Source: Yuukianura sp. NJ FZ-2021 (taxonomy: Eukaryota). From it: a DNA stretch of 64,000 nt. Below the pieces are notes generated by a model. The model worked only from the letters and a program-made list of their open reading frames with translations, did not search any database and was not told the origin of the DNA. The stretch lies in the NCBI GenBank assembly GCA_046563655.1, contig CM102285.1, forward strand, positions 992,001-1,056,000, given 5' to 3'. This document shows positions 7,809-39,703 of the stretch, in pieces. Position numbers and translations under genes: made by a program. Numbering within the stretch: the stretch's first letter is position 1; each line of letters starts with the position of its first letter.

Positions 7809-8135
7809 TAAGAAAAAACTTTTTGTTAAGGATTAAGACCAGCACCAAATCTATTGTTCTTGACCGAACGCAAAAGATTATCTTATTTCTTGTAACTTGA
7901 AAAATTGAACAAAAAAAAAGTTCTACAAATATCTTTTTCAAAAATGAAGAAAAAAGCGTCTTTTCGTAAGACTTCACCTGTGTAAGCTAGAACAAAATTT
8001 TCTTGTGTTCACCTACCATTGACTTCAAGTCATTTCTAAAACTGACGCCGACTGACCGGAGTTCAACCTTGAACCGCACCGTGAAAAACTGCCACAAGCT
8101 TTTCAAATTTCAATTTTTTTTTGTTCGTTGGACTA

Positions 8136-12350: not shown

Positions 12351-12911
12351 TTTGGAACTCGACAAATTCAAAATTCCCGCCGTCTCTTGACTGAAAATTT
12401 TTGGTTCGACGCAGTGGTGTTTTGATTGTGGAAAAAGGATTCCAAGAAACACGAAAACGCTGGAAATGGCTGGACAGGAGTCGGAGGGAATTGGAATTCG
12501 TGCTGAAAACACTTCCATTTTTGGGTGACGTGTTGCAAAGTAAACCTACGTTGTTATGTCAATAACTTTACAACGGGAGGGTTACTATTGGTTACCTTAG
12601 TAACCACAAAATATCCACTTTCGAACAAATAGGGTTACATTATCACTGGGTTACCACCTCTTCTGAAATTAATTAAACTCTGATTGACCTCTAAACAAGT
12701 GTTTTGTTGAGTTTTCATGAATTTCCCTTTCCAAAAAATGCACTACTTTTCAAGTATACAAAATTTAAAAAAAAAATCATTTGTTCTCAATAATAGGCGC
12801 GAGAAATAAATCTGATTGCGACATGTAAAGTAATTTCTTATTCCGAATTTCAATTTTAACTTAAAAAAAAACACAATTTTGAACAAAAAAAATACATGTT
12901 TTTCCATCCAT

Positions 12912-14053
12912 TTACACCTGAGTTTGTTTTTGGCGTTTGGGTTTGCTAGCATATAAATCGCGACGAAACTCTTCTTCTATTTCAAGCGTTTCATACCGCA
13001 CTGGATCAGCCATTTGAATTTCTTTGACCTCTTCCGAATTTTCTACATAAAGTGAACTGTTTCCAAAATTTTGTTTACAGTAGTCGTGGATGTCGTAGTA
13101 GCCATTTTCTAAACAGAGATAACCAAAGATACGAGTAATTCCTGCTTCGCATATCCAGTCAATCCGGTCGTCGCATTGGAGAAAATATACTGGATCACAG
13201 TAGTGACTGTCACATCCAACACGTATCGTGTTCTCATTCCCTCTCAAGAATTCGCCGAATTTCTCCTCCGGAAGATGCGTAATACCCGGGTTTCGCTCCA
13301 GGTTCAGGTAGTTTCCTCTTCTGGAGAAAACAAATGCCGCATCGGATATGTTCGCCAAGGTCAAGCTGTTATTGTCAAGATAAACTGCCATCTCGTTCCT
13401 AAGCTCAACAAATGGGAGGTCGCCAATGGACTGTAGGCCAACCTGTCGAAGGACGATAGTGCGCAAGTTTTGGAGGTCGTTGTGAAACGCACGGGCAGGA
13501 AGATGGGACAGAGTATTACCATCCAAGTACAGTGTAGTAAGTGCTGTGAAGTTGCTGATTAGGTCAAAGATTTCTTCTGCATCTTGAAAGTCCATTTCAT
13601 TGATATCAAGCATGGTAGTGGTAGAGTAGGTGCCAGAGAAGGCGTCTGGGTGGATTTTGGTATACCTGTGATCCGCATAGAAATACAGACTCTGAATTTT
13701 CAGAGTAGAAACGGAATGGGCGGGAACCTTTGTAAAAATTTATGAAATTGAAATTAAAAATTCAAAATATTTGATTTTTTTAATTCAACCTTGTCGCCTG
13801 GGGAAATCACCATTGCGGGGTCTATAGAAACCATTTGCATGACTGCGGCTGTGTTGTTAAAAGCGTCTGAAATGGCATCGAATGTTGTCTGGATGTTCCA
13901 TGTGTTTAAGGCTACAGAGACACAGGAGATGGAAGGACCATAGCTACCGTTAGAACACCTACATTCCTCTGGGAATGTACCAGGACATTGCAGGACTTGC
14001 GCAGAACCTTGTAAGGTCAGAAGCAGTAGGCCGATCAAAGTTATTTGAAGCAT
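12912..14053 (-). CDS. Secreted LRR protein, tandem copy 1 (2 exons)
   Basis: Signal peptide MLQITLIGLLLLTLQGSAQ, Cys cap CPGTFPEECRC, intron before VPAHSVSTLK, about 6 LRRs, Cys-rich cap (CDDRIDWIC...YLC...DYC) and a charged helical tail. Confidence 0.88.
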
Positions 14054-14493
14054 GATGCTATTACGAGTTTGGAAAATTTCTTGTACGGTTGAACTGACAA
14101 TTTTGTAAGTTTTCGAGCTTTGTCTAGCAGTTTTCACTTCAATGTTTACACAAATGTAAAACGAACGTTAAAATGAATAGGACATCAAAGTGTTTGATAC
14201 GGTAAACTGTTCTCATATTGTGAACTGTTCTGACATTGTAAACTGATATTGATATTGTGAATCTTGTTGTTTCAGAGTGTTGATAAAAGTAAAAAAAAAC
14301 ATTACGATGCATTTTAATTTTAAAGTTTTATCGGATACTGCGTATAAAATTTGAGAACTATTATGATTAAGGATTCTCAAAACTTCGTTCTATTTTGGCG
14401 AAGGCTAAATCAATGAAAGTTCAAAGTTTAAATTCAAAATCAAAAACACGCACTGCATGCCTTTTTCAAGGAAAAAATTTGAGCAAAAATTTC

Positions 14494-14640
14494 CCTTGCA
14501 CTTTTCCATTAACTTTGAAATCAGCTTCAAATCAACTTCCAACGAAATCAACTTCGGTCGAAATCAAATCGAGAGAATGCGGCGATGGCGGTGCTGCAAA
14601 AGAAATTTTGGAACTTGTCAAATTCTAAACTCCCGTCGTC
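14494..14640 (-). pseudogene. Degenerate acylphosphatase exon-1 relic
   Basis: CCTTGCACTTTTCCATTAACTTTGAAATC and GGTGCTGCAAAAGAAATTTTGGAACT...AAATTC match 12278-12380; start codon lost and an internal insertion present. Confidence 0.6.
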
Positions 14641-14885
14641 CTTCCAATGCCAATCTCCGATTTTATGAAACACAAAAACGCTGAAAACGGCTGGACACGA
14701 TTATTCAAAGTGAGTTGGTTATAAAAATATGGGAAAATTTATTTCCTTGACAAAAATAATTTTTAAAAAAGTAGTAAAATCAATGCACATCTTTTTCGTC
14801 TTCATTCGGACATTTTTATTTCAACTTTGAATTTTGACAAGGCAAAAATCGAAATTTGAAAACAAAATTTGTTTTTTCGTTCCAT

Positions 14886-16032
14886 TTACGCGGGAATTTT
14901 ATTTTGGCGCCTGGATTTGCTAATAGTATCAAAAGAGCGGCGTTGAAACTCGTCTTCCACTCTGAGCGATTTATACTGCACATGATCAGCCATTTGAATT
15001 TTCTTGACATCCTCCATTGTCTCCCTATAGAGTGGACTGTTTCCAAACTTTTGTTCGCAGTAATCATAGATGTCGACGTAAGCAGGATCTGTGCAGAGGT
15101 AACCATTGATACGCTTGACTCCTGCTTCGCAGATCCAGTCAATCTTTTCGTCACATTCGAGAAGGTGTTTTGGAAAACAGAAGTCACATCCAACTCCAAG
15201 CGTGTTCCGGTTTCCTCTCAAGTAGTTCCCGAACTTCTCTTCCGGAAGATACGTAATACCCGGGTTTCGGTACAGATACATGAAGACTCCTGTTCTGGCG
15301 AAGGTAAATGCCGTATCGGATATGTTGGCCAAGGTCAAGTCGTTACCGTCCAGTGCAATGCTCTGTACATTTGGAAGTTGAGCAAATGCGAGGTCGCCGA
15401 TGGACTGTAAACCGGCGTCGCTAATGGTAATATATTCCAAGCTTTGAAGGTTAGCTCCAAAAGCATGCGCAGGAATTTGTGACAGAGTGATACCGGTTTC
15501 CAGCTTGAGTTGATACAGTACTTGGAAGTTGTTGAACAGCTGAAAGGCTTCTTCGCTGTCCTCAAAGTGCATATTGTAAATGGTGAGTATGTCCGTGGTA
15601 GAGTGTGAGCCAGAGAAAGCGTCTGGGTCAATCCGGGTATACTTGTTATACGCCAAAATAGTCAGACGCTGCGTTTTTAGAGTAGAAATTGAATGGGCGG
15701 GAACCTTTGAAACAAATTTAAAAGTTTAAAATTTAAAGATTGTGAATTTTTAAATTTTTTGGTTGAACCTTTTGTCCCGAAGTAATGACTCGTGCAAAGT
15801 CCATAGTTACAGAGGAGACGGCTTCGTCTGTGTTGTTAAAAGCGTCTGAAATTGCATCGAACGTTGCTTGGATATCCCATGTGCGCATGGGAATCGTGAC
15901 GCAGGAGATGACAGGGCCGTTGCTGTAGCTTAGGCATTCACATTCTGCTGGAAATGTGTCTGGACACAGTAGAACCTGCGCAGAAACTCCTAAAATCAGA
16001 AGCAGTAAACCAACAAAAATTCTCCAGAACAT
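14886..16032 (-). CDS. Secreted LRR protein, tandem copy 2
   Basis: ORFs 15733-16032 (signal peptide plus CPDTFPAECEC) and 14886-15656 join through VPAHSISTLK; same architecture as copy 1. Confidence 0.88.
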
Positions 16033-16310
16033 GGCGTTTTAACTTTTTAGCAGTTTTGTACGTCAGCTTTTCAGTTTTATTTTATTTTTTAGTATTTGTC
16101 TCACTCTCTTTTGTACCAATTTCAGGAATCCATTCAAATCTAATAGTGATTAGAAGTTAGAAGTGGTCAGTATCGTCAACTGTTTGAAAAACAACGTGAT
16201 TTCCGTTATTGTTAGAAATGACGTTGCAATAAAGATTACGAAATGTAGATAAAGTTTAGAAACCCAGTCTTTATAATAATCATCATTTTTAATAATTTAA
16301 AATAATCGAA

Positions 16311-16412
16311 ATGTTTTCTGTGAACTTCAAAATCGAATAAAACGAGAGACTGAGATGATGACGGTGCTGAAAATGCCATTTTGGAACCCGGCAAATTCAA
16401 AATTCCCACCGT
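16311..16412 (-). pseudogene. Acylphosphatase exon-1 relic (MAFSAPSSSQSLVLFDFEVHRK, then similarity stops)
   Basis: Close nucleotide match to 12285-12382 including the 5' flank; no donor site or downstream exons. Confidence 0.78.
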
Positions 16413-16478
16413 TTTTCACATTGAATTTTTACAAGCCAAAAATTAAACTGTGCACAACTTTTTGGTTCCAAATTTCAT

Positions 16479-17629
16479 TTACACGTAAATTTGGTTTTGG
16501 AGCTTGGCGTTGCTAATTGCAACAGAACGGCGACGAAACTCTTCTTCTATCTTAAGCGTATCATAACGCACACGATCAGCAATTTGAATTTTCTTGTCCT
16601 CTTCCAACTTTTCCCTACTAAGCGGACTGCGTCCAAACTTTTTCTGGCAATAGTCGTAGATATCGTCGTAACCCGTTTCACGGCAGCGGTATCCATAGAT
16701 ACGCGTAACGCCTGCGTTACAAATCCAGTCAATCCGGTCGTCACACTGGAGAAAGTAAGTTGGATCGCATTCGTTTTGATAGCCTGAACCAACATAGATC
16801 ATGTTCTCATTCCCTCTCACGAACTCCCCGAACTTCTCCTCCGGAAGATACGTAATACCCGGGTTTCGCTCCAGATTCAGATAAACTCCAGTTCTGGGAA
16901 AGACAAATGCCGTGTCGGAAATGTTCGTCAAAGTCAAATTGTTACCGTCAAGCATAACGTTCACAAGGTTTGGAAGTAGAGCAAACGGGAGACTGCCGAT
17001 GGACTGTAAGTCAGCGTCTCGAATGGAAATATACTCCAAGCTTTGGACGTCAAACGCATGCGCAGGAATTTCTGCCAAAGTGTGACCGTACAAGTACAGT
17101 CCACGCAGTACTTTGAAGTTGTTGAACAGCTCAAAGGCTTCTGTGGTGTTCTGGAAGTCCATATCGAAAATGTGGAGATGTTCCGTGGTAGAGTGAGTAC
17201 CAGAGAAGGCGTTTGGATCAATCCGTGTATATGTATAAGCCGCATAGAGATACAGATTCTGAGTTTTTAGAGTACGAACGGAATGGGCTGGAACCTTTGA
17301 AAAATTTTGAAATACCGATTAAAGATTTTTAAGTTTAATATTTTTTATATTTTTTTTTATTAAACCTCTTGGGCCGGGCTTGTGACGAGTCTAGGGTTTA
17401 TAGTTGCAAAATAGACGGCTTCGTCTGTGTTGTTAAAAGCATCTGAAACTGCGTCGAACGTTGCCTGAATGTCCCATGTCTCCATGGAGATCGTGATGCA
17501 TGTGATATCAGCGCCCATGCTGGACTCATCACAAGAACATTCTTCTGGAAATGTGTCTGGACACTGCAGGATCTGCGCAGAAACTCCAAGAACAACGAGC
17601 AGTAGACCAAGTAGAATTGTGCGGAGCAT
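16479..17629 (-). CDS. Secreted LRR protein, tandem copy 3
   Basis: MLRTILLGLLLVVLGVSAQILQCPDTFPEECSC...; exon 2 runs from VPAHSVRTLK to QNQIYV*. Confidence 0.88.
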
Positions 17630-18493
17630 GACGTTTTTCAAAATTAAGGATTACAGTAGGCCACAGAATTTTACTGTATTTTGTAACAGCGTTTCAGTTT
17701 GTTCTCTATTTTCCAGGCTTTTCTTCCACACTTTTTGTGCCGATTTTTACGCAGAACTGCACTTAAATCTAAAAGTGATTACAAGTTAGAAGCGTTTAGT
17801 ATTGTCAACCTTTCGGGAAAAAAACGTTTGTTTTCAGTTATTAGTAGAGATAAAGTTGTACGTAAGATTACCGATATAGATAAAGTTCAAAAAGCAGTTT
17901 TTTCCAGTAACACATTTAATTATTCATCAAAATCAATTTTTCTCCAAACTCTTCATGTGGAATATACAAAAAAAAACACAATTTTAAAGTAGCTTTTTAA
18001 AGTAGCACAATTTCTAATTACCAAATGGATCAAACCGGAAGAGATTAATATAAAATGTGATTTCAAAGTGAGAGACTGGGCCAATGTTACACTTCAAACG
18101 AAAGAAGATAAACGTTAAAGTGTCAAATTACTCAAATGTTGATTTCCTGAATTTAGAAAATATCAAGGCTAAGACTATGGAGTTTTCCAACTTTTGTTCT
18201 AGATTGGCGAAGTCTAAGTCAGCAAAAATCACTATGAGAAATCCGAATTGTAGGAAATGAAAATCGTTAGCTGGATTTTTATTTTCATTTCTGCATTTCC
18301 TTCCAAAAATTCACTACTTTTCTGGTAAACGGAATTCTGAATTTTCACTTTGTTGTTGTTGATAAAAACAGGCCCGAGAAAATCAAGTTGCGACGTGACG
18401 TGAATGGAAATTCATGTTGAGATGATATTTTTATTTTGAATTTTGACAACCGAAAAGTTAAAGTTTTGAACAAATTTTGATTTTCCTTAACAT

Positions 18494-19638
18494 TCATGCC
18501 CTAACTTGATTCTGGGGCTTGGCTTTGTTAATAGCATAAGAGCGGCGACGAAACTCATCTTCTATCTTACGCTCTTCGTACCGCAGACGATCCGCCTTTT
18601 GAATTTTCTTGATCTCTTCCACATTCTCCCTATAGAGTGGACTGTTGCCAAACTTTTGTTCGCAGTAGTCGTAGATGTCGGTGTGCCCAATTTCTACACA
18701 GCGGTAACCATAGATACGGGTAATACCTGCTTCGCAGATCCAGTCAATCCGCTCGTCGCATTGGAGAAAATACTTTAGATCGCAACTGTCTTCCCGTCCA
18801 TGTCCTACAAAGATGGAGTTTTCATTCCCTTTCAAGAAGTTCCCGAATTTCCTCTCCGGAAGATGCGTAATACCCGGGTTTGCCTCAAGATTCAGAGAAA
18901 TTCCTGTACTGGAGAAGGTAAATGCTTTATCGGATATATTGGCCAACGACAAGTTGTTGCCGTCAAGTTGAATGTTCGAAAGGTTTCGCAGTTCAACAAA
19001 TGGGAGATAGCCGATGGAATATAAGCCAGAATAACGAATGCTGATACTTGTCAAGTTTTGGAGGTCATTGGTAAACGCATGTGCAGGAATTTGGGACAGA
19101 GTACCAGTGTACAAGGACAGGTCACGCAGTACTTTGAAGTTGTTGAACAGGTCAAATGCATCTTCGACATCTTGGAAGTCCATGTTATAAATAGCAAGGT
19201 CGGTAGTGGTAGAGTGGGTGCCAGAGAATGCATCTGGGTCAATCCGGGTATACTTGTGAGCCGTAAAGAAGCTCAGTATCTGAGTTTTTAGAGTAGAAAT
19301 GGAATGGGCGGGAACCTTTAAAAGAAATTTTTAAGTACCAATTTAATATTTCAAAATTTTATTTTTTGTTAAACCTCTTGGGCCGAGGATGCGACGCTGA
19401 AAGTTTCTATTCGAACATGGTAGACGAGTTCGTTTGTAGTGTTGAAGGCGTCTGAAATTGCATCGAACGTCGCCTGCATGTCCCATGTGTCCATGGGGAT
19501 ATAAACGCAGGCGATTTGTGGGCCATCACCGGTGTCAGAGCAATAACATTCTTCTGGAAAGGGGTATGGACACTGTAGGACCTGCGCTGAAACTCCTAGG
19601 ATCCCAAGCAGTGCACCAACAAAAGTGGTCCAGAGCAT
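18494..19638 (-). CDS. Secreted LRR protein, tandem copy 4
   Basis: MLWTTFVGALLGILGVSAQVLQCPYPFPEECYC...; exon 2 runs from VPAHSISTLK to QNQVRA*. Confidence 0.88.
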
Positions 19639-20675
19639 GACGTTTTTCGAAGTTCGGGATTACAGTTTGCCAAAAAATTCGACACTGTTTTTTTGAGAGT
19701 TTTTTCGTAACAAGCTTGTCACTTTTTTCTCCACGTTTCAATCTTTTTTTCCACTCTGTGGCAATTTCTACTCCGAACTCGACTTAAAAGTAAGAGTGTT
19801 TTAGATTATCAACTTTTCGAAAAATAACGAATTTTCAGTTAGCAGTGATAAGGTTGCAATAAACATCACAAAAATATGATAAAGTTTTAAAAAAAAAACA
19901 GGTTTTCCAGTTAACACTTTTAACAACTCAAATTTAAATTCGATTGTTCAGCAAATCCCGCATCCGGAAGATAAAAAAGCACAAAGCCAAGTACACAACA
20001 TAGATCGAATTTGAAACGATTAATCTAAAATACGACTTAAAGTGACGAACTTCACAATTCAAAGTAAAAGGAGAAATTCGTTTCAAATTATTCAAGTTTT
20101 GATTTCCGTTAGAAAATATCAAGATTAGAACTTTCGCTGTAAATTGATGAAATCCGATTTAGCTAAACTCAAATGAGAGAAACCCAAATCTGAGAAAATG
20201 AAAGAAAATTATTTGCACACTTGAAAACTTAATTAATCATATAACGAAACATTCAATTCGGAAATTTTTAAAGTGTTTTTTTAATACCTTTGTTTAATTT
20301 GAGAAGGTGATTTTTTTGAGGAAATGGACGGAGGAAGTAACTATTTGGATTTGTGCACACGGAGTTAGTCTTCAAGCGGATGTTGGATAGCTTCAGTCGA
20401 GCTTTGGTAGTGAGAGGGATCACACGAAAAAAATTGTTCTTCATATTGTTTCAAAAACCGAGTAAACCTTTCTGACAGTTCATGAATACAAAATAACATA
20501 TTATTTTAGTAAAACTAATATTATATTACTCATATTATATTAAGTTTAAAGTGAAATAGTCCAGTGAACACATTACCACAAAAGTTCATTTTCGAAAGTG
20601 AAATTTTGGAAGATTTTCTGGGTTTTCTCAAAAATTTTCAATTTCCGGAACGAGTTTTATAGCTCAACAAAAAAA

Positions 20676-23600
20676 ATGAAGTGCTACGCACTATTTTTCC
20701 TTCCCATTGGACTTCTACTACAAGGTAATGCGGTTTACATATAAGTATATAAAAATTGTGGTGTTCAAAAATTCAGAAAAAACTTCAATTTTTTTTAACA
20801 ATTTGAGATTTTTAGTTTGTCGTAACCAAAATCCTTCCATATTTTTCGATCCATTTTGTACTAACAGTTATATTTTTTTGTTCAACAATGAAATCAGTTT
20901 GGAAAGTGTTAATTTGAAGAACTCGCCCGAGGCTTTTCTGCTCATTTCCGTGGCAGTTTCAACCTAGATTGTTAGATCAAAAAGTGTACTTCTGCGCATG
21001 AGTTTTTAACTCACTTTAATGTACATACAGTGAACGTTGAATGTAACAGTGTAACAATTTTTACATTTTGTGCTTTGTCACAAGAAAAGAAAATTGTCAC
21101 AGTCATGATCGTTAGTGGTGGCAGGTAGTGACGTTAGGCTACTGGCACAGATTTTTTTTCAATTTAGAAAAAATTGTTGAGTCAACTGTGGCAGCACACA
21201 ATTTCAAAATTTCTTTAAAAAAAACTTCTTTTTTTGTCAATTTTCTTTAATTGACTTCCTTTTCAACGCCACCCCGTGAGTTCACTTGGACAAAAAAAGA
21301 AGGGTCAGCGGGGAGCGCCAAAATTTGAACAAAAATTTCAAAACATAAAAACTGTTCGAAACCAAAATTTTTCACTTATTGTTTAAGTTATTGCTGTTAT
21401 GCTCAATACGCGGTTCAAAACGGGGCATGCGCAGTGTGAAATTGTGCTGACAGACCAGAATGAAAAATTGACTCATGCGCAGAATAAAAATTTGTATCCA
21501 ACTGTACTCATGTCGGATGAGTTCAGTGACCCAGTTTTCCACTGTGTAAGTAACGAAGCACGGTACACCGTGGGAACAATGGCAGATTATTTTCTGGAAC
21601 CAATTCAACTCACTGTCCTCACGATTTTCGAAAAAAAAAACACAACTTGAAAAAATAAAAATTGAAAAGTTAACGTACGTGTCTGCACAACAATGCAGAG
21701 AGCGTGAGGACCGTGCAGTTTTTAAGATTAAAATTAAATACCAGGGTTCGGCAAACACAACTTAGAAAACTCATTCCCCACTCAAAGTGCTCGACGCGAA
21801 AAAAAATTCAAAATTTCACGTTCAAACATTTTGGTTTTCACAAAATTCAACATTTTTCATAGAACAAAAATTTCTGTTACTCAATTTCGGTTTTAAACTT
21901 TAAACCCAGTTTTGAAAAATTTACTGTGAACTTCAACCCAAATTAACCTCTACATTAATCTGCACTTTTTTATTCAAATTTGGACAAAAATTCTAATTAC
22001 CGCCAAAAATCAAACGGAATGTTCGACTTCAAAAATTTGAAATACGCTGAAATATTGTTAGTTTGACATTTGGATTAGAAATTCGGGGAATTCGAATTTT
22101 CAAAAAATTTGAAAATCAAAATTTTTCGTGGGTTTTGCCCATGTTCTCCCCAGTTGGTACCCATTGCCCAGTGGGGAAGCAGTGAACCCTGGCCTGAGTT
22201 GAAAGGTGTTGATGAAGATGCGTGAATGAGATACGAAGGAAGTCAGTGGAGCTTGGGATGTCAAAGGTCTTTGGTCCATGACAGCATAAGAGATGCTGCT
22301 GATGCTGAACTGATGCTGGGATGAATTGGGGTGGAAAATGAGACACACTGCACGACTTAAGGTGGAGCTGTCACTTATGCTCTCCATTGTTCAAAATACT
22401 TTCTGGATGGTGTTTAGAACAGAATCAGAATCTTTGTGCTTTGGTCCATTGTGCTTCTGAGCAGAATGCAAGGATGAAGGAGACAATGGGTTCATTACGC
22501 TCCAAATCTGGACAATTTTCAAAAGATCCTCCCTCACATCCATCTCCACTTTGTTCAAAAACTTCCAACTTAAGCTTCCTTACTGTCTACTTTAGGTCAC
22601 AGGTCACCTACACTTTTTTTATCACCGGATTGAAAAACTAATGCTCCATTTTAGTCAACTTTTGATTCTAATCGATTAACATCATCAAACCTTGATTAAA
22701 ATCAAACTCCCAAAACTACTGACTCTTTTACAAGCAATACCAAAAATCCTAACCTCAAACAACTTAGTAAGTTTGAGAACACTTTTAAATAATTCATGAA
22801 TGCATGATTTACTAAAAATTAAAAAAAAAATTTACTTTATGTATGTCACTTTAGGCTAGGTTGTTAGAATTGGATTTTACGTTTTGTACGTAGGAGTTGA
22901 TTTTAATCGAGTTTTAGTTGCTGTTAAAAATTCGAGTGAACTTGATCCCTGTTAGGAATTTAGTTTGTGGCAGAGAGGAATCTTTTCCTGTGAAGATTTA
23001 TTTTTGTTCGTGTGTCTCCGTGCCTGTGCGAATGAAGATGTCAAGTGTTTGGGTGGGGATTAATTCTCTTTTCCCGCTTCTTCGTTTAATCCCTCACAAG
23101 AATGTACAGTGCGGTCCAAAAGTAAAACCGAAAACTCAAATTTCAATGATTCACCTGTACTAGCTTCAAATTTAACAAAACTCACAATCAGTGAAACATA
23201 GAAGGCAAGAAAGAAACTCAGGAGCAAGCACAGTTGAAATCAAAATTTAAAAAAATGAACTGTATGAAATTTTTGTTTTTTCATTTTGCTAATTTGGAAT
23301 CTTCCGACATTTTTTTTACATGATGGAAGATCTTAAATTCTCTTTTTTTTTAGAAAAAAAAAGTTTTTTTTTGTGTCCAATTTCATTTGGACCACACTGT
23401 ACATTTACGTGGGGACTTTTCAATTGAAGCTCCAGTGAGTACGAAGCACTTTTGTTGGACACAAAAGACTTGGAACGCAGGGTGATTCCTTTTGGAAGTG
23501 ATATATAAGGATTAGGTTAGGTTTTAGGTTTTAAGTTAGGTTTTAGGTTGGGCTCTAAGTGGGCCTAAATGGAAGAAGATCTTCATCTGCTCTTTAGTTG

Positions 23601-26600: not shown

Positions 26601-29600
26601 CAAAAGAAGCCCCTCTGCGTACTTGGAGCTTTACGGTACTCGGCTTGAGCTTTACGGAAATTCAAAAACAGTTCAACTCTTACGTTTCAGAAATGGTTGT
26701 TATTTAGCGGTTAGCTTTCCTAAAGTTATGTTTTGATTGTTTTTAAATAAGCGCCCGGGAAGTGCATGGGTCGGAGTTTTACGGTACTGCTCGACCAGGT
26801 AATTCCTGACCATGCTCATGTTGAATCCACAGGAAAGTTGATTAAAATAGGCGGGTAGGAGGGTAGTCATTAGGCAAGAGATGATTAGTACCTTGGCGCT
26901 GGATTTTAAAATTCAAAAAGAAAACACGTACAGAGGAAGGGAGGGCCCTTGAAGTTTTCTTCCGTTTTGTTTTGTGTGTGGGGGACAGGAGAAGTGGGCC
27001 CTTCAAGTGCCCTCCAACATCTCTCTTCCCTTATAACTACTGTTCATGTTTTCAAGTGAAAAACACAAATAATGACTCTATCACGGGAACAACTTTTCTA
27101 AACAAAAAACATACAAAAACGAATCCTCCAAAATGCGGGTGTTTTGTTCCTTTGTTTGTGTAAACATGGTGGGTTTTAGGGCGGGTATGTTCCATCTGTC
27201 CACTTTGGAAACTCATTTTTAATAAAATATAATATAAAATATTAATATGAAATAATATAAAACTGTGTGCTACTGGTGTTTGAATTCAATGAACTCTGGG
27301 CATTGAATAACATTTTGAAAGGGATTTCGTGCGGGCAGAGATGCGATTCACTGTGAGTGAAGAATCTTGTAAACGGAAGCACTTTTCAAGTGCAGATGCG
27401 CAGAAGCAGGACATGCGGAACGGGCACACAAAAAAATATACTTTTTAAAACTTTTGTGTGCTTTATGTGTGCACAGTGTGCAGAATTATGGTCACACTAT
27501 GTGTGCAAAGCACGACTACAAAAACGGAACAATGAAGTGTAGATTCATGACTTGGTTTGAGGATTACAGTAGTAGAAAAGTAGACCAACTTTTTTTTCCT
27601 GAAAAGAATTTTGCAACACTTCTTAATTACAAGTTCTGCACAAAAAAATTAATTCTGTAGAAGAAAGATTTTTTTAACAAAACATTTTTCACACTTTCCC
27701 ATTTTTTCGTTTTCGTAAAAAAATTAGATTTGGATTAGTTTCTTCTACTTTTGTTTTTTGTAAATCAAGAATTCGATTCTTTTTTCGTCCGTTGTTGGAA
27801 ATCAAAGATTTCGATTTTTTTGTTCGTTTTGTAACAAATCAAAGATTTCGATTTTTTTTGCTCGTTTTTTTTTCTACGTTTTTGGTGCGTGCTATGCTAA
27901 AGTTTACCTTTGTACTTTTTTGTGTAATTTTTGAACGGAAGTTTAGAAAAAAAGCAGAATTTTATTTCAAATATAAAAAACCGTGGAATTGTTTTGAATT
28001 GCATGATTGAGCGCGCATGCGTCAGCAAGAGTTGGCGTTTTTTAATAGAAAAAGAGTGACTGTATAGATTTTCGTTGTTGAAGTAGAAGTGAATCATTTT
28101 CATTACTTTTTGTTCGATTGACTGCGCACGCGTTCAATACAGTTTGCCAACTGCAAATTTTGCAAAAACTTGCCTTTTGTTGGTTTTGCACAGATTGCAA
28201 TTTTTGCCAACTGAAAAAAACTTGAAAGAAAAGCGAATTCAACTGGTCAAGAGAAAAAGTCGAGCGAATTTCTCAGCCGGCCGTGATCGTCTAGTGGTTA
28301 GGACTCCACGTTGTGGCCGTGGCAACGGAGGTTCGACTCCTCCTCACGGCAGTTAATTTTTTTTTCTTGAACTTTTCAAAAAATTTGACATTTCGAAAAA
28401 AAATTGTTAACGAAAAAAATGTTTTTCAAACGAGAAAGTTTAAGTTTGCAATGGAGTCAGGCGGCAGAATTTGAAATTGAAATTTTACTTTCTAGACTAT
28501 AATGAGTTGTACTTTTTAATTTATTTAAATTGTAGGTGTTCATTTCTAAGTGGCTAAAATTAACTCTGAACTTTTGAAAATAAGTTGTTTCAAATTTTTA
28601 GAAAGTTGAAAGTATGAAATCATAATTTCCAAAAGTCATTTTCCTAAATTAAATGAAGTTCTAAGTTCTAAAGTGGATTTTCTAATCTGGATTTACCATC
28701 ATCACAGTAATTTTTGGGAACGGAGTTCATTACAGAGTAATCTCTGTAGTTACAAACATTAAAACCTCAGTTTCTGACTGATTTTCATCTTCTCTGTGCC
28801 ACAATTTGAAATTTGAATAATTTGAATTTTGCCGCTCTCATGCAGAACCCATTCCAAGCTGCCCCACCTTCTCGCTCCAACTTCTCTTTGTTCAAGTTCG
28901 TTCAGGTTGGGTGGAACTAAAGTTCTTCCGGTGCCCTCACAGAGTTCATGTTCAACCAAAAATTTAAACTTTATTGTCCACTGCAAATAGGGACAATAAC
29001 CTAACATTTGAACTATACATTAGTTATATGACCTAATCTGAACATAACCAACCTAATCTGAGCCTAACTAACCTAACATTTCAGTTAGACATTAGTCATG
29101 TGACCTAATCTGAGTCTTGCTAAAACCTAATGTGAATATGCACAACTTTTCCAGGCAAAAATAATTGTTACCGTAAAACTTCTAATAAACGCCCAGTGTT
29201 AGACCTAAAATCTCATATCACACTCCATGTATTTATTCGCGTGTAGTTCTCGCTTATTATTCAGCGACCGTTTATATCAAGGTTGGTAAACAAACAAATC
29301 TACACCAGGTTGTCCAATAACTCGACGTTTTTAATTCTTTCAAATAATTCGCAAAACATGAGTCGCCCTACCATTCTATAGTAATGATTTGGATGTAATT
29401 TAATAGGAATTCCAGGAAATTTGTGGTAAAAAACAGTTTACAGGAAGATTTTTTGCAAAGCCCGAATTATTGGACAACCTTTTTTAGGAAATACAATTTG
29501 TTGTATTTCGCTTGTCAAAGCACCTTAGTTTATGTGAAGTTTTACGGTAACGGAAAAAATCTAAAAACAAAAATTTTTGCACAAATTTGAGTTGACAAAA

Positions 29601-32600
29601 TTTTCTTTTTTCTTTTTTTTTTGTAGGCGTGTCTGGGGCGCAACAATTTGAAAAGCAGCCAGAATACAACGAAGTGAATCCAGGACAGGAAAGTCGTCTC
29701 ACATGCAAAATCCTCAATAAGAAAGGTCAATGTTCCTGGCAGAAGGACAACAAGGTCAGTGACCTCTTGCAAAATTTTGAAGAAAAACTCCAAATTTTGT
29801 AAAAAAAAAAAACTGAAAATTTTACTTTTTTTAAAAAATTTTCAGCCCGTTGGTATTTACCTGGGTAAGTATGAGTGGGCAGGTAACCCTGACGTAGGCG
29901 ACTGCAGTCTGCGCATACTCAGTTCCACTCTGGAGTATGATGATGGCGAATGGGAATGTCAAGTGACAGCGTCCGACTTTGCAGCTCAAGATGCCTTGAC
30001 CTCACGACCTGTCAAGTTGGTCGTCAGAGGTAAGAAACTTCACTTGCGCAATCATTTTTCAAAAAACTTTGTATTTTACCGTAAAATTTCCAATGTCAGG
30101 CCGGGCTTCTATTGGTTTTTGTGCAGTCTAGAACTAACGGCTTTTGGTAGAAGTTTTACACTAATTCAAAGACTTTTGAACATTTTTTTTAAATCTTGAA
30201 CTTTAATCTCGGAATGAGGTGAACCAAAAACTCAAAAGTTTACAGAAAAATCGAATCGAATTTTTTCCCGCCTTAGGGAAATTAAAAGATGAGAGGAGAT
30301 CATCTTTTTTTCTTTCTATTTCAATTTACTATGAAGAAAAGTTTTTTAGCATTAAAATTTCAAAATGAGATTTTTTATGTTGAAATCTATAAAATTTTGA
30401 TTTCTTTTTACAGTTCCACCAAATGCTCCACAAATTGAGTTTAATGGAACGCAGATTTCGATGGGAAAGAATTTAACGATTGAAAGTGGAATTCGCACTT
30501 CAGTAAAATGCATATCACGATACGGCAATCCACCGCCATTTTTAAAATGGTTTGTTGGTAAGAGACAAAAATTATATAAATTATATATTAATTAATTAAA
30601 ATATATTAATTAAAAATGTTGATGTTAGGTGACGATGAGGTGGTCGGTGTGAATCAGACCAATAAGACTGAAGACGACAACTCCAAGAAATGGTCTGCGA
30701 CGTCCGTGCTGGACTACAGTTTTGCCAAATCGCAGAACGGAAAAGGTCTGCGTTGCGTTGCAGTGCATGAAGCTTATCCGACGAAATCCAGACACACGCA
30801 AGTCACTCTTGACGTACAATGTAAATTTACGCAATTTAAAACTTCCGCCTTTTCTGCGACAAAAAGTGTTGACGTAATGCGTATTTTTCTAACGCAGATG
30901 GACCAGACGTAAAAGTGATTGGAGAACCGGAGGGAGATTTGGAAGAAAACAAAACGCCACTGAGTCTGCGTTGTGCCGTAGACGCTAATCCAGCGGCGCA
31001 AGTCAGTTGGAGACGCGTCGGTGGTTCACAAACTTACAGTTTTCAAGTACGCGAAGAAATTTTGAAATTGACGTGTATCATATGTTGATTTTACTGTAAC
31101 TGTGTAAGTTCTATTGAAATTGTACAGGAAACGCTTGAATTCCGACCGCTGCTAAGAAAACATGCAGGAACGTACGTCTGCGACGCAAAAAATTTTCTTG
31201 GAACTGCACAGTCCACACAGATTGTCATCGACGTAAAATGTAAGTTAAAAAAACGCCTTAAGCCTGGTTCACACTGTTTAAAAAAAACTAAGCCTGGTTC
31301 ACACTACAAAAGAACTTAACCCAGCTTCACACTGTTAAGAAAATAATTTAAGCTCGGTTCACACACTTGAAAATTAAAGGCTGGTTCACACTTTAAAAAA
31401 AATTAAAGCGTAGTTCATACTTAAAAAAGCTTAAGTCCCTGTTTACACCCGAGCAGCTTTTTAAGCATAGTTCACACGAAATTTTCAAATTCTCGATTCT
31501 GATTGGTCGATTTCTTTTTTTTTCTTGACCGTGATTGGTTCAGATCCTCCAAAAGTGACAGGAGTGCGTCCTGATGGCCAAGTGAGTGCGAATCTGTACA
31601 ATCGCACAGTTTTGCAATGTCAAGCAGATGGAAACCCCCCTCCGACGTACGAGTGGATCCAGAAAATGGGGGCTTCTGGGGAAGATGCGACCTACATTCG
31701 AGGGAGTGACCCAATGCTCGTCATACACAATGTCACGTACGACTATCAAGGGAAATACTTCTGCAGAGCTTCCAACGTCATAGCAGCTACACAGAGAACC
31801 ACACTATCCAACCCAATTCAACTAAGTGTCTACGGTAAGCACAAAATAAACTAAAAAAGTAGAAAAGTAGAAAATTTTATGTTTTCTTCCACTTTCTCCA
31901 TTACGGGAAACTCCACTCAAAAACTAAAAGAAAGAAAGAGAAAGTTTGTCGGGAGAAAGTAAACCCAAATGCTGTTTTATTACCCTCGATGCCCAACGCT
32001 TACGTCAAAAATTAAACTTCTTACTTTTCGCGCCTAAAATTTTCACGGTTCGTGTCAATGCCATTACTCGTCGTTTTCGCAGAAATTTTGAACTTTAGTT
32101 TAAGTGCATATGCTTTTTTCCAGTATTGAAACGCGTAGGAAAATAACTGAAAATGCAAAGTGAAATGTAAAGTGTAAACTTAGCTTAACTGAAATTGTTT
32201 CCAATTTTTATTGAAAAGATCAAAGACAAAACTTTGTGAGTTTTCTTAAGCTGTAAAAACCGAATATTTTTTTTTCGAAACAGCAAAGTTTTTTTTTGGT
32301 TTTAGCGAAAAAGGAAGGAAGTTTTGAAGTGTTTCCAGGAAATGCTTTTTTCTGGAAGGAACTTCTTCATTTATTCAGTTTACGTAAGAGTCCGTTACTC
32401 CGTTACGTAAAACCTTTATGTCACACGAGGGAACTTCAAACGTAAAAACTTTCTTGGATACGCTTTTTCCAGCCTTAATTCCATTTTAACCCTGTTCACA
32501 TATTACGTACACCACTCAAGTGGGTTGAGGGGGGGGAGGGTGGAAAATTGAGATACTTTCGACTGGAAATACTTGTGGGAGTTAAAAATTATATAAATTT

Positions 32601-34067
32601 AGAACATATTCTAATATAATTATATATTTTGATATATTTAATACATTAATTTTAATATATTATAACATATTTTTGGACAGGGGCGCCCCAAATATTACGC
32701 TACGCAGTTGAACGTGAAGTGGGGGTGGAGAAGGGTGGAATGGCCTTGATGAACATTGCATTTTGCTCAAACCCCGCCCCCTCCAAGGCCGTATGGGAGT
32801 GGGGGTCAGTGCAACTGGAGGCGGGAGTTCTGCAAGGTCGGTTCAAGGCAGACAAAATTCAAAAAGTAAGTTTTCGAAAAAAAAAAAACTTAACTATTTT
32901 TTTGAAGACTAAACTTTAACTAAAATTTTGTTCTGAACTTTTTGTTTTCAATTTTAGACAAACAGAGACGATTGTTATGAAGCAAGAATTCGAATCAGCG
33001 ACGCGGATAACTCTGATTCGCGCCACTACTATCTTAACGTCGAAAACGACCGAGGAATTGACAAGTACTCGACGAATCTGCAAGTGAGAGGTGAGTCTGA
33101 CGCGTCTTCGGCGCATATTCAAATATTTTCAGCGCATGCTTGCAAAAACTGTTGTAGATTTTGTTGTGGCTCTTTCAGATCCAGTGCTGATGTCCACCGT
33201 AATTGGAGTAATCGCTGGATTACTCATACTCCTAGTCTCTGTAGTTTTGATTATACTCTATGCCTTCAAGGCTGACAAGTGGTGCTTTTCACGTACGTCA
33301 CACATTTCAAAAAAAAAAAAAAACTTTTTCTGGAAAATTTCTCATCAAAATGAAATTTCGAAATTGGTTTTTAGAACGTGGAGATTTCAAACCCACTGAC
33401 TTGGAAAGGTAACCAGAAATTTTCCTACGATAAGAAACTGACCAAACGTTTTGTAAGTGTATTCGAGTGTTTTTTTAACGTTGTATCTGCGTAGTGAGAA
33501 GAGTGACCTGGACGGAAGCATCAGAGATGAGCATGCGCAGATCAGAAAAAGCAGTTTCGAGAGCATTCCTCAGGCGGATCTCCATTTTTCACATCCACAT
33601 CACCATCATCTCCATGGCAACACGGCAGTTCCGCACCTTCCAAGAAAGTGCCGAACGCCGCAGCCAATCTTAACTCCGGAGATGCATATTGCAAAAGTAA
33701 AGTAAAAATTTTTGAAAATTTTGAAAATTATGGTTTCTTTGTTGAAAAATTCGAACATAAGAATTTATGCCTAACGTAGGACCAGAAAAGTGAACGCGGA
33801 TTTCGCGGAAGAGCGTATCCAACGGAACCGAAAAAAGACATCAACTACGCAGATCTCCAGTTACCCAAAAGTAGTAACAATGGATCTATGAAAAAGTCAA
33901 GAAATCAACAGTTTTTACATCAACAGCAATATCATCAACACCTACAGCAGCAACAACAGCAACAATATCAACAACAATTTCCTACACAATCTTCGACTAC
34001 AGCTAGACCGCGACAACATGGAGAAGTACAGTTCAAACCAAAAGCAAATGAGCAGGCGGAGGTGTAG
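20676..34067 (+). CDS. Type I membrane protein with five Ig domains (Kirre/Neph-like architecture); first coding exon 20676-20724, next exon at 29627
   Basis: MKCYALFFLPIGLLLQG|VSGAQQFEKQPEYNEVNPGQESRLTC joins in phase 1. Ig motifs DDGEWECQV, GNPPPFLKW, LRCAVDANPAA, CQADGNPPPTYEW and FCSNPAPSKAVWEW; TM VIGVIAGLLILLVSVVLIILYAF; tail with INYADL, a Q-rich run and C-terminal EQAEV*. Confidence 0.85.
23107..23399. mobile_element. TA-flanked Tc1/mariner-type MITE
   Basis: TA|CAGTGCGGTCCAAA ... TTTGGACCACACTG|TA. Confidence 0.68.
24090..24400. repeat. Degenerate ~60-bp tandem repeat (core CGGTTGAAGTAAGGCAGAAC), about 6 units
   Basis: Core recurs near 24094, 24155, 24214, 24275, 24329 and 24385. 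Confidence 0.75.
25290..25515. repeat. Degenerate ~40-bp tandem repeat (TTTGACG...AATGTAACAAAATTTG)
   Basis: Repeated TTTGAC(G/A) and AATGT(A/G)A(C/T)A motifs. Confidence 0.6.
26307..26790. repeat. Cluster of TA-CCGTAAA / GAG(C/T)TTTACGG-TA transposon-like ends
   Basis: Left ends at about 26309 and 26318; right ends GAG(C/T)TTTACGG near 26498, 26636, 26657 and 26784; termini related to 29171-29547. Confidence 0.5.
28280..28351 (+). tRNA. tRNA-His (GTG), intronic in the Ig gene
   Basis: GCCGTGA acceptor stem pairs with TCACGGC-A; A box TAGTGGTTAGG; anticodon arm CCACG-TTGTGGC-CGTGG; T arm GGAGG-TTCGACT-CCTCC; a T-run Pol III terminator follows. Confidence 0.96.
29171..29547. mobile_element. 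TA-flanked MITE with CCGTAAAACTTC TIRs
   Basis: TA|CCGTAAAACTTC ... GAAGTTTTACGG|TA. Confidence 0.65.
31255..31480. repeat. ~30-bp minisatellite (AGCCTGGTTCACACT core) in an Ig gene intron
   Basis: About 7-8 degenerate units; a related CTGGTTCACA duplication occurs at 58467-58545. Confidence 0.7.
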
Positions 34068-35407
34068 CACATGAGTGTTGGTAAAACGTACTTTTAATAT
34101 AACATGATTTACTGTATCATATAATATAATCTAATATATTATTATAATATACGGTAATTAAGTTAAGTAATTACATCAATTTTACGTATTTTTACGTAAT
34201 TACGTAAATTACGTAAATTTACGTCAAAAATACACAAAAATTCTCCATGGATTTTCTAAACAGGAAATGATCTCAATATTGCATGATAGCAAATAAATTG
34301 TTGATGTAAAAAATGTGTATATGTAATGTTAGTGTATTTAGTGGAGCAAAGGACCAAAACCTGTACTACTCGAATGTTAATTTTTAATAATAAGTTTAAT
34401 TATAAAATAATATTATAAGTATGTGTTATTATAATTGCACCGATGACCAGTATTTGACTTGTATAAAACTAAAACAATGTGGTTTATAGCTAACATTGAA
34501 CTTTAAGCGGAGTATTTTTGAATTTTATTCAAACACGTTGTTTCTTACTATACTTATGAAAAATTACATAGCATTATTGATTATGCCACTAAACATAACT
34601 TATCGTTAGTAAATATTAGCCTGTAAATGTTGTTTAACATAATATTTCCGGTGACAAAGTTATCCAAATACCGTAATATTTCCAGAGTTAGCCGAGGGGT
34701 TGTATTTAGTTAACCAGTAAGGACATTAAATTTGCGTTCATCTTATAGAGTTACCAACCAATGTATAAACTACACAAACACGTTTTCATGTAAAAGTTCT
34801 AAAATTTTGAACATTTTTGTATTTTGAGGCAAACCTTCTTACCAAATGAACCTGGAGTTTTTATTCAACTTACCCTACTTTGTTATCACGCAATCTACAA
34901 TAAATCATCATTCTAACAAACATATAACCTGTGCTTGAACTCTGCCCAAGTGTTTGTTGTGTATTTTTTGGGACCTTTTGCAAAGAAAAACATCATAAGT
35001 AAACAAAAACTGAAATTTTTTCAAAAAAAAAACGAGTGAATTAAAATTTTTGCTGAAAACACTTCCATTTTGGCGTGACGTGTTTGAAAGTAGAAATAAG
35101 TTTTGTCACTAACTTTCCAGCACAGAGGTTACAAGTACCTTGGTAACCACAAAAAAACAACACTTTCGAATATAAGTTAATGCGAACAGTTGGTTACCAA
35201 CTTCTCGGAAATTAAACCTTTGAATGACTTCTACAACAATGTTTCCTCGCAAGGAAAAAAAAATCAATAAAGTTTTCGACAAAAAATCGGCCTAAAAAAG
35301 TAAGGAATCAAATATTTCGACTTATTACTTGGATAACTTTTATTTCAGCTTGGAATTTTGACACGACAAAAATTAAGATTTTGAACAATTTTGATTTCCT
35401 ATTACAT

Positions 35408-36558
35408 TTACAGGTGAATTTGGTTTTGGCGATTGGCTTTGCTAGTAGCATAAGAACGGCGACGAAACTTTTCAGTCTTAGCCGTTTCGTACCGCAGACG
35501 ATCAGCCATCTGAATTTTCTTGACCTCCTCCGAATTTTCTCCATAAAGTGGACTGTTCCCAAACTTTTGTTCGCAGTAGCCATAGATATCGCCGTAACCA
35601 ATTTCTAAGCAGTTGTAACCATAGATACGTGTCACTCCTGCGTTACAGATCCAGTCAATCCGGTCGTCACATTGGAGAAAGTAAGTTGGATCGCTGTCGT
35701 TTAGGTGGCCAGATCCAACAAAGATCAGGTTCTTATTCTCTCTGAGGAAGTTCCCGAACTTCTCCTCCGAAAGATGCGTAATACCCGGGTTTCGCTCCAG
35801 ATTCAGACGGATCTCGGTTCTGGAGAAGGTAAATGCAGTGTCGGATATGTTGGCCAACGTCAAGTTGTTACCGTCAAGAGTAACGTACGCAAGGTTTGGA
35901 AGTTTAACAAATGGGAGATAGCCGATGGAATGTAACCCGGCGTTCCGAATGTCCACATTGTTCACGCTTTGAGCGGTGTTGTCAAACGCATGCGCAGGAA
36001 TTTGGGGCAGAATGGTATCATACAAGTTCAGTCCACGCAGTACTTGGAAGTTGTTGAACAGGTCAAAGGCTTCTTCGGTGTCGCGGAATTTCATATAGTT
36101 AATAGTGAGATACTGCGTGGTAGAGTGAGTGCCAGAGAAGGCGGCTGGGTCAATCCGGGTATACGTGTCAGCCGCCCACAACTCCAGAAACTCAGTTTTT
36201 AGTGTCGAAACGGAATGGGCGGGAACCTTTGTAAGAAATTTGACATACAAATTAAAAATCTTAAAATTTTGAAATATTTTGCTCTGAATTAAACCTCTTC
36301 GCCAGGTGAAGTGACCCTGCTGGTAGTTATAAAAACACTAAACACGACTGCATCTGTGTTGTTGAAAGCTTCTGAAATTGCATCGAACGTTGTCTGAATG
36401 TCCCATGTGTCCATGGAGATGATAACGCATTGGATTACGGGACCCAAGTTATCGTCGCTACACATACACTCTGGTGGAAATGTACCAGGGCATCGCAGGA
36501 CCTGCGCAGAACCTGTTAAGATCAGGAGCAGTATACCGATCAAAGTTATTCTAGACAT
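35408..36558 (-). CDS. Secreted LRR protein, tandem copy 5
   Basis: MSRITLIGILLLILTGSAQVLRCPGTFPPECMC...; exon 2 (within ORF 35408-36250) runs from VPAHSVSTLK to QNQIHL*. Confidence 0.88.
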
Positions 36559-37199
36559 GACGCTTTTACGAGTTTGTATGCTCTACTTGTAGGATTGACC
36601 TGAAAACGTTTGTAAGCATTTCAACTGTCCCTAACAGTTTATGTTGTAATTTTTGCCCAAAAGTATAACGTACACAAAACTGATTAGAACATTAAAGTGT
36701 CTGATATTGTCAACTTTTCGAAAACACAAAAACGTTTAATGATTACAGCCTTGTCATTGCAAAGTGTTGATAAAAGTTTAAATAAAATCGCGATGCATTT
36801 TAATCTAAGGTAGATAACGTGAGTCATATTGGAGAAATCACATTCTACGAGTTTTTGCATGCGCAATATTAATAACTATTAATTAATACTAATTGATAAG
36901 TAAAAATTCAAAGTATCAGAGCGGAAGTTTTTTTTTCTTTAAATTTCTTGCTTGTCCCAAGCCTAGTTGTCAATTTTCAACTGTAGATTTCCCGATTTCA
37001 GAAAGTATCTAAATTAGTAAATGAAGTGGCGAACTCTAAATCAGCGGAGTTGAACGTAATATCAAAATAAAAAACGGTTTTGACTTATTATTCGAAACAA
37101 ACGACTTCGAAAAATTAATTAGTTCGGCTTCCTACGGAAACTTTTATTATGACAAGCCAGAAATAAAAAATTTGAGCACCTTTTGGTTTTCATTTATGC

Positions 37200-38369
37200 T
37201 TAAATTGTATTTTGGCGCTTGGCTTTGTGCGTATCATAAGAACGGCGACGAAACTCTTCTTCTATCTTCAGCTTTTGGAACCGCAGACGATCAGCAGTTT
37301 GAATTTTCTCGACCTCTTCCAAATTCTTTCCATAAAGTGGACTGTTTCCAAACTTTTGTTCGCAGTAGTCGTAGATGTCGTGGTAAGCTTTTTCGTGGCA
37401 GCGGTAATCATAGATACGTGTAATTCCTGCTTCGCAGATCCAGTCAACCCGGTCGTCGCAGTAGAGAAAGGAACCTGGATCACACTCGTGGTCTTCAGTT
37501 CCAACAAAGATCGGGTTTCGGTTTCCTCTCAAGAAGTTCCCGAACTTCTCCTCCGGAAGGTACGTAATACCACGGTTACGCTGCAGATTGAGGAGGACAT
37601 CTCTTCTTTTGGAGAAGGTAAATGCCGTATCGGAAATGTTGTCCAAGGTGAACTGGTTACCCTCAAGGTTAATGTCCGTAAGGTTTGAAAGTTCAGCAAA
37701 TGCTAGATCGCCGATGGACTGTACGCCAGCGTCTTGAATTATAATTTTTGTCAAGTTTGGGAGGTCTTTGTAGAACGCATGCGCAGGAATATGGGACAGA
37801 GTGACACCGCCATCCAAGCCCAGGAAACGCAGTACTTGGAAGTTGTTGATCATCTCAAATGCTTCTTCGGCGTCTTCGAAGTCCAATTCACTGATCTCAA
37901 GTACGGTAGTGGTAGAGTAAGTGCCAGAGAAGGCGTCTGGGTCAACCCGGGTATACGTGTGACTCACCCAGAGGCGCAGGTTCTGAATTTTTAGAGTCGA
38001 AATGGAATGGGCGGGAATCTTTGTAAGAAAATGTGAAATAAAAATTAAGAATTAAATTTTTTGAATTTGAATTTTAAATTTTGAATTTTTTTTTCTGATT
38101 TATACCTCTTCGCCAGGTGAAATGACCCTTTGCGGGTCAATCTGAACCTGATTCATGACTGCGTCTGAGTTGTTAAAAGCTTCTGAAATTGCATCGAACG
38201 TTGCTTGAATGTCCCATGTGTCGATGTTGCTGGTAACGCAGTAGATGTAAGGGAGGGTACTGTAAGAATCGCAAGAACATTCTTCTGGAAAGGTGTCTGG
38301 ACACTTCAGCTCTTGCGCAGAAACTCCTAGGATCAGAAGCAGTAGACCAAGGAAAATGGACCGGAACAT
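37200..38369 (-). CDS. Secreted LRR protein, tandem copy 6
   Basis: MFRSIFLGLLLLILGVSAQELKCPDTFPEECSC...; exon 2 runs from IPAHSISTLK to RQNTI*. Confidence 0.88.
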
Positions 38370-39497: not shown

Positions 39498-39703
39498 TGG
39501 TCCTTCGAACCGGATCGACCCAGCCATCTGACGAGCAGTGAAGCCGAGGAAGACATCCCACTTGGACATCAGTCATCACCTTTTTACAAGGTCTATGTGA
39601 GCACCGAGCCAGCTCCAAAAAACCTACAGGGCTCTGGAAAAGGTGATATCGTCCCAAACATATCATTTCGTTTCAAATCTAATCTCAGTACCCGTTTTTA
39701 GCT

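Follow-up and report, generated by a model that had tools for sequence, protein, structure and literature searches.

Six tandem secreted leucine-rich repeat genes in Yuukianura, with a concave face that has probably diversified under positive selection

What should be made of six neighbouring genes whose products share one framework, and differ mostly on the strands where a ligand could sit? The genes lie in a stretch of 64,000 nucleotides from Yuukianura sp. NJ FZ-2021 (GenBank assembly GCA_046563655.1, contig CM102285.1, positions 992,001 to 1,056,000 of the forward strand). This whole stretch is called the window here, and all coordinates count from its first letter. The array occupies 12912-38369 on the minus strand, from the stop codon of the first gene, g1, to the ATG of the last, g6, and it encodes leucine-rich repeat (LRR) proteins. 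A preliminary description had proposed that they form a secreted recognition family under diversifying selection.

The best explanation of the data is probably a tandem family of secreted LRR binding proteins, in which one surface was diversified by positive selection after duplication. The analysis establishes the gene structure, the secretory features, the fold, and a ratio of non-synonymous to synonymous rates (dN/dS, or omega) above 1 that is concentrated on the concave strands.

Six pairs of open reading frames (ORFs) make up six intact genes of two exons each. All six introns have GT..AG borders, are in phase 0, measure 59-87 nt and sit at the identical codon position. The predicted products have 359-361 amino acids (aa). 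The genes are:

g1: coding sequence 14053-12912, minus strand, 359 aa; exon 1 14053-13790 (signal peptide, N-cap and LRR1), intron of 62 nt, exon 2 13727-12912.
g2: coding sequence 16032-14886, minus strand, 360 aa; exon 1 16032-15769, intron of 64 nt, exon 2 15704-14886.
g3: coding sequence 17629-16479, minus strand, 359 aa; exon 1 17629-17366, intron of 71 nt, exon 2 17294-16479.
g4: coding sequence 19638-18494, minus strand, 361 aa; exon 1 19638-19375, intron of 59 nt, exon 2 19315-18494.
g5: coding sequence 36558-35408, minus strand, 360 aa; exon 1 36558-36295, intron of 68 nt, exon 2 36226-35408.
g6: coding sequence 38369-37200, minus strand, 360 aa; exon 1 38369-38106, intron of 87 nt, exon 2 38018-37200.

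A tblastn search with g2 over the 64-kb window gave 11 high-scoring segment pairs. All of these fall within the six loci, and no extra copies or fragments turned up.

Two of the introns can be compared with contigs from a run labelled X3. Contigs of this run join 17294 to 17366, skipping 71 nt with CT..AC borders on the plus strand, which is the predicted intron of g3. Another contig joins 19315 to 19375, skipping the 59 nt of the predicted g4 intron. Depth in this run is zero in 6 of 30 bins, five of them wholly intergenic and one comprising the final 122 nt of g1 and the sequence downstream of it. The kind of run was only guessed ('DNA?'), so the junctions are taken as evidence of a cDNA-like kind for the predicted splicing, and no further conclusion is drawn from them.

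All six products start with a hydrophobic stretch that ends in ..SAQ and that, judged from the sequence, is a signal peptide. This is followed by an N-cap with four cysteines in the pattern CP..C.C..C, about eight LRRs of 24-27 residues each, a C-cap with four cysteines, and a charged tail of roughly 45 residues. The cysteines of both caps are invariant in all six proteins, and so are two N-glycosylation sequons. The last 48 residues hold 8-14 lysines plus arginines and 6-11 aspartates plus glutamates. Beyond residue 25, none of the six has a transmembrane segment or a hydrophobic end of the glycosylphosphatidylinositol (GPI) kind, the highest hydropathy over 19 residues being 0.80-1.22. The preliminary description had called the proteins secreted and germline-encoded, and the gene models and hydropathy, with a signal peptide and no membrane anchor, bear this out.

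Pfam recognizes the repeats unevenly. The LRR_8 cutoff of 27 bits is exceeded by the exon 2 products of g1 (37.6 bits), g2 (37.6), g4 and g6 (39.3), with g3 (23.9) and g5 (25.8) below it. LRR_5 is over its cutoff in three of the six exon 2 products; g2 scores 42.8 bits and g6 36.8. Neither LRRNT nor LRRCT matched at E values up to 1, in a search that covered exon 1 of g1 and g2 and exon 2 of all six genes.

Structure prediction places these parts in a familiar shape. The AlphaFold2 model of g2 exon 2 has a predicted local distance difference test score (pLDDT) of 86.0 and a predicted template modelling (pTM) score of 0.81. In this model, DSSP assigns strands at exactly repeat positions 3-7 of LRR2 to LRR8, shortened to 3-5 or 3-6 in two repeats. 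The tail is modelled as one helix, residues 230-267 (about 38 residues), with a pLDDT of only 51-68.

A relative found in database searches, P0011, could be modelled at full length (pLDDT 86.4), and here the N-cap hairpin is seen as well. The fold search used the P0011 model as its only query. Its best Foldseek matches are Nogo receptor chains (E 2e-6), and next come GPIb-alpha, LGR4/5, the Toll N-terminus and 5T4. The matches have target-normalised TM scores of 0.52-0.65 over 313-330 columns, at a sequence identity of 13-19%. The family is best read as soluble, secreted LRR-only proteins, each a predicted capped solenoid of about eight repeats with a fold like that of the Nogo receptor.

Where do the six proteins differ? 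The preliminary description had quoted five sets of strand sequences, one set of loop sequences and several framework motifs, and all of these are present as written. Its five strands are LRR2 to LRR6 of the roughly eight repeats. It did not mention that the strand of LRR1 is equally variable, nor that those of LRR7 and LRR8 are conserved. The loop before the C-cap reads CDSHYC, CDFC, SGYQNEC, HGREDSC, SGHLNDS and TEDHEC in the six paralogs.

Counted per repeat position and pooled over repeats, the proportion of non-synonymous differences (pN) reaches 0.67 at position 3 and 0.63 at 5. Positions 2 and 8 stand at 0.46, the core positions (4, 6 and 11) at 0.09-0.13, and the 99 codons of the convex side at 0.15. 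The gene-wide proportion of synonymous differences (pS) is 0.39. Over all 15 pairs of genes, synonymous divergence (dS) is 0.39-0.75, and therefore not saturated, and dN/dS is 0.38-0.70.

For the codon models, our own maximum-likelihood code (GY94/F3x4) was run on 345 mature codons of the six sequences. The concave class was fixed beforehand as positions 2, 3, 5, 7 and 8 of the eight LRRs, which is 40 codons, leaving 305. With this fixed partition, omega is 2.03 for the concave class and 0.47 for the other 305 codons. A likelihood-ratio test (LRT) of the concave omega against 1 gives 35.0 (p 3e-9). Concave and framework omega also differ when the concave class is allowed its own rate (LRT 22.4, p 2e-6), so the preliminary description's expectation of a higher dN/dS on the concave face than in the framework is borne out.

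Models that are not told which sites to look at also find a class with omega above 1. M2a is favoured over M1a (LRT 89.0) and assigns an omega of 7.0 to 9.8% of the sites. The comparison of M7 with M8, which the preliminary description had suggested as a check, favours M8 with an LRT of 105.6 and puts 10.7% of sites at omega 6.2. M8a against M8 gives 88.2. Diversifying selection, as proposed from the letters, is therefore what the site-class models return. Its sites cluster where the preliminary description expected them, on the concave strands and in the loop that precedes the C-cap.

The individual sites make this concrete. With an M8 posterior above 0.9, 21 sites are selected, and 11 of these are concave codons. 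For the LRR domain alone, this means 11 of 40 concave codons against 1 of 152 others (Fisher 1e-7). Six further sites are in the N-cap, at alignment columns 32, 34, 36, 38, 41 and 43. Their spacing of about two residues would fit one face of the hairpin in the P0011 model. Of the remaining three, columns 264 and 271 belong to the loop that precedes the C-cap and column 297 to the C-cap itself. The 99 convex codons include no selected site, so the selected residues do not look scattered over the protein. The conserved parts are LRR7 and LRR8, the convex side and most of the C-cap.

Is the family new? A word-indexed protein search with g2 exon 2 found nothing at E up to 0.001 among its 298 candidates, and repeating it with a profile of 12 sequences gave only P0011, P0136 and generic LRR proteins. 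An exhaustive profile search returned 11513 proteins at E up to 0.001, most of which are giant LRR proteins whose many repeats match one at a time. Six proteins match in a single stretch over most of the profile: P0011, P0034, P0084, P0104, P0108 and P0136 (235-337 aa). These are unnamed proteins from JGI/ENA contigs of about 1-4 kb. An oribatid mite, Medioppia subpectinata, contributes a further relative with two tandem copies of the module (CAG2103744.1, P0151).

P0011 is colinear with the window proteins, with a signal peptide, a four-cysteine N-cap, LRRs and a C-cap. It matches exon 2 with an E value of 7e-42 (33% identity over 249 aa) and exon 1 with 7e-13. The relatives are 26-34% identical to the window proteins, and have the motifs DAF-G/A-T, NP/R-GIT-LP..KF, CD...DWIC and Y.D...YC in common with them. 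The charged C-terminal helix is found in all six window paralogs, and only in part in P0011. Since full-length relatives exist, the preliminary term 'undescribed family' was too strong.

Other searches were less productive. A sequence search of the PDB gave only generic LRR matches that span two to three repeats, VLR chains among them. A metagenome scan proposed two loci: in L002 a short motif matches by chance within an ORF that encodes no LRRs, and L001 carries this weak match too. Among the matches listed in a literature search for positive selection and concave faces of LRR proteins in arthropods, there are plant, fungal and vertebrate cases, and none concerns this family.

Several observations weigh against positive selection. 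In every LRR family the residues exposed on the strands differ between members, which is why variability by itself is no proof and rates have to decide. Perhaps, then, no adaptive diversification took place: the strand residues would be unconstrained, with omega near 1, and recombination between the tandem copies, multi-nucleotide changes and local rate variation would inflate the tests. Given its own rate multiplier, the concave class has an omega of 1.47, which does not differ clearly from 1 (LRT 2.96, p 0.085), and NG86 with local pS arrives at 1.06 over the 40 concave codons. The pairwise homoplasy index (PHI) test signals recombination, with none of 1000 permutations as low as the observed value, and recombination can inflate the LRTs of site models; a run-length test in the manner of GENECONV found no significant conversion tract (smallest global p 0.25). 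Gamma rate variation lowers the M1a/M2a LRT from 89 to 18.9. The selection tests rest on only six sequences, the site posteriors are naive empirical Bayes values from our own code instead of PAML or HyPhy, and 'concave' is defined by the LRR motif plus DSSP strands, not by model coordinates. We nevertheless consider an absence of adaptation improbable. The LRT with gamma variation is still significant (p 8e-5), and the site-model LRT is 101 on a star tree, 100 on the protein tree, and 67.7, 19.9 and 20.3 for three segments that each have their own tree. Data sets simulated under M1a behave well, with an LRT of at most 3.2 in 14 of 14. Finally, pN at repeat positions 3 and 5 is above the gene-wide pS.

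If selection is accepted, it could still serve ends other than the recognition of foreign molecules. One candidate comes from Oplophorus gracilirostris, where the catalytic 19-kDa partner of the luciferase's 35-kDa subunit is FABP-like. The 35-kDa subunit is a secreted LRR protein in complex with the 19-kDa one, and PMC9491549 states that its function is unknown. By analogy, each window paralog might hold or stabilise a different endogenous secreted protein, the concave face co-evolving with that partner, and no non-self recognition would be involved. In the ESM Atlas, P0011 shares 167 of 256 features (score 0.93) with a cluster named 'Oplophorus luciferase 35-kDa non-catalytic subunit-like', and the window protein reaches this cluster at 0.91. 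There are 5 hits, the taxon is 100% Arthropoda, and the representative measures 364 aa, close to the 359-361 aa found here. This family link is a lead that comes from Atlas cluster names, not from a sequence alignment. No obvious small secreted partner was seen among the window's ORFs of at least 130 aa, which were judged by eye, smaller ORFs being unscreened. Omega values of 6-7 at about 10% of sites are seen more often where co-evolution is antagonistic than where it is cooperative, which also counts against partner-binding subunits. All told, such subunits seem rather unlikely. Antagonism need not mean pathogens, of course: fast-evolving reproductive, digestive or inhibitor proteins, such as seminal or egg-surface proteins, or LRR proteins that inhibit foreign enzymes (phospholipase A2 inhibitor beta, plant PGIPs), would look alike, given that positive selection on a binding face fits any arms race. 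Arthropod clusters named 'phospholipase A2 inhibitor beta-like' are near in the Atlas (0.91), although these scores are leads only. In shrimp, a gene labelled oplophorus-luciferin 2-monooxygenase lies under a sex-associated single-nucleotide polymorphism, and its function is called unclear by the authors (PMC11155064). Of the alternatives, this is the one to which we give least credence.

This leads back to a family of binding proteins diversified by positive selection. After duplication, selection would have driven apart a single surface, made up of the N-cap hairpin, the concave strands of LRR1 to LRR6 and the loop before the C-cap. The six paralogs would then present six different binding surfaces. 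The convex side, LRR7 and LRR8, the C-cap and the charged C-terminal helix would be the constant part, and could serve a common function: folding, a shared partner or oligomerisation. Each paralog may then bind a different extracellular ligand, and these ligands might be non-self or otherwise antagonistic molecules, in a form of humoral recognition.

An immune role as such is no more than a tentative proposal. Slightly more doubtful again is the fuller picture, in which the locus would belong to a humoral recognition repertoire of a poorly sampled arthropod lineage, encoded in the germline and highly polymorphic, with a hypervariable surface on a constant module, analogous to LRIM/APL1 and VLR proteins.

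The loop before the C-cap adds a detail. It is variable and carries zero to two additional cysteines (columns 262 and 268, around 13250-13270 in g1). Cysteine totals are 10 in g1 and g2, which have an extra pair in the loop, 9 in g3, g4 and g6, with one loop cysteine, and 8 in g5, which has none and thus lacks the one at alignment column 268. The odd loop cysteine of g3, g4 and g6 could form an intermolecular disulfide, by analogy with LRIM1/APL1C.

How far do the comparisons with known systems go? The preliminary description had invoked mosquito LRIM/APL1 proteins and lamprey VLRs. These hold up as analogies; membership in either group does not, given the missing LRIM cysteine motif and the complete germline genes.

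LRIM proteins are characterized by a signal peptide, 6-14 LRRs, a C-CC double-cysteine motif and a C-terminal coiled-coil, according to PMC3020904. The likeness to LRIM/APL1 consists of a signal peptide, about eight cysteine-capped LRRs, a helical C-terminal extension and tandem paralogs (APL1A-C in mosquito). The tail of the window proteins looks different, being modelled as one low-confidence helix of about 38 residues instead of a long coiled-coil domain. In the Atlas, 'Leucine rich immune protein (Coil-less)' appears only at 0.89. LRIM identity was rejected: none of the six proteins has adjacent cysteines, the ones concerned being at columns 262, 268, 276, 284, 296 and 308, so that C-CC is absent. 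The soluble immune role of LRIM/APL1 (PMC3020904) serves as a working analogy only.

In the VLRs of lamprey and hagfish, too, a capped LRR solenoid carries its variation on concave strands and in a C-cap loop. The window proteins have neither a stalk nor a GPI-like hydrophobic end. VLR identity was also rejected, because the six genes are complete in the germline with one intron each, and no LRR cassettes or fragments exist elsewhere in the window. Diversity here comes from duplication and substitution, whereas in VLRs it comes from somatic assembly.

The closest folds, those of the Nogo receptor, GPIb-alpha, LGR4/5, the Toll N-terminus and 5T4, are ectodomains built as LRRNT-LRR-LRRCT. Compared to these, the window proteins lack a Pfam match for LRRNT or LRRCT, and they lack a membrane anchor.

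The Oplophorus 35-kDa-like proteins are likewise secreted, LRR-only, about 360 aa long and present as several paralogs in shrimp; nothing here indicates luminescence. Six shrimp genes with this label are differentially expressed after Vibrio or salinity treatment (PMC11532942).

A positively selected concave face is a recurring way for tandem LRR families to recognise variable ligands, and is known from plant R genes, PGIPs, TLRs, VLRs and LRIM/APL1. The window extends this familiar pattern of recognition proteins to a secreted LRR-only family, from an under-sampled arthropod-like lineage whose closest database relatives are unnamed and only about 33% identical. In what could be seen of the crustacean studies, the Oplophorus 35-kDa-like LRR proteins are only an annotation label. 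If the link to them is true, there would be a concrete hypothesis for that family, namely that its members are ligand binders that have diversified, and that their specificity lies in the N-terminal two thirds of the concave face. And if the reading as a humoral repertoire is true, it would be the first functional clue to that same family.

The sample also contains sequence that resembles the array without being identical to it. In runs X1 to X4, many contigs over 12800-19800 are only 90-99% identical to it. For run X1, there are 104, 91 and 85 contigs in the identity classes of 99% and up, 95-99% and 90-95%. A single contig of 2309 nt follows g1, the spacer and g2 in order, and shows 148 differences from them. 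Further contigs link paralog to paralog: some skip 1977, 2073 or 2088 nt, and some join backwards over about 1514-1520 nt. Among 40 of the 473 variant rows, 17 are in g1 coding sequence and concern 13 codons, with 10 non-synonymous and 3 synonymous changes. The contigs at 90-99% identity are consistent with strong allelic or copy-number diversity; the divergent ones could be divergent haplotypes, further copies or effects of the assembly graph.

Upstream of the genes, no 8- to 10-mer is common to at least five of the six 400-nt stretches, and therefore no promoter motif is claimed.

The array is not alone in the window. Its neighbours are:

6047-6619, minus strand: F-box ORF.
8085-8666, plus strand: ORF with a peritrophin-A chitin-binding domain.
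9475-10815, plus strand: multicopper-oxidase exon.
29678-33399, plus strand: immunoglobulin (Ig) superfamily gene.
38518-46030: long terminal repeat (LTR) retrotransposon, with a single uninterrupted gag-pol-like frame of 1884 aa at 39683-45337 on the plus strand.
48284-49915, plus strand: multi-finger C2H2 zinc-finger ORF, 543 aa.

The Ig-superfamily gene separates the array into g1-g4 and g5-g6, with g5 at 15.7 kb from g4. Two or more of its exons encode Ig domains (Pfam Ig_3 with an E value of 4e-13, and a weak V-set match), and an exon with a hydrophobic stretch that resembles a transmembrane segment is also present. The direct repeats that flank the retrotransposon are near-identical, with blocks of 300 nt at 100% and 94% and one of 93 nt at 99%. 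The left LTR of the element begins some 150 nt upstream of the g6 ATG, which puts it within the promoter region of g6.

The chitin-binding ORF and the oxidase exon are found just upstream of the array. For the oxidase, the best relative in the database is unnamed and only 31% identical, which means that the lineage is poorly sampled. The domains of the neighbouring ORFs, the mite relative and the arthropod clusters of the Atlas jointly point to an arthropod-like animal. The zinc-finger and F-box ORFs look like ordinary neighbours.

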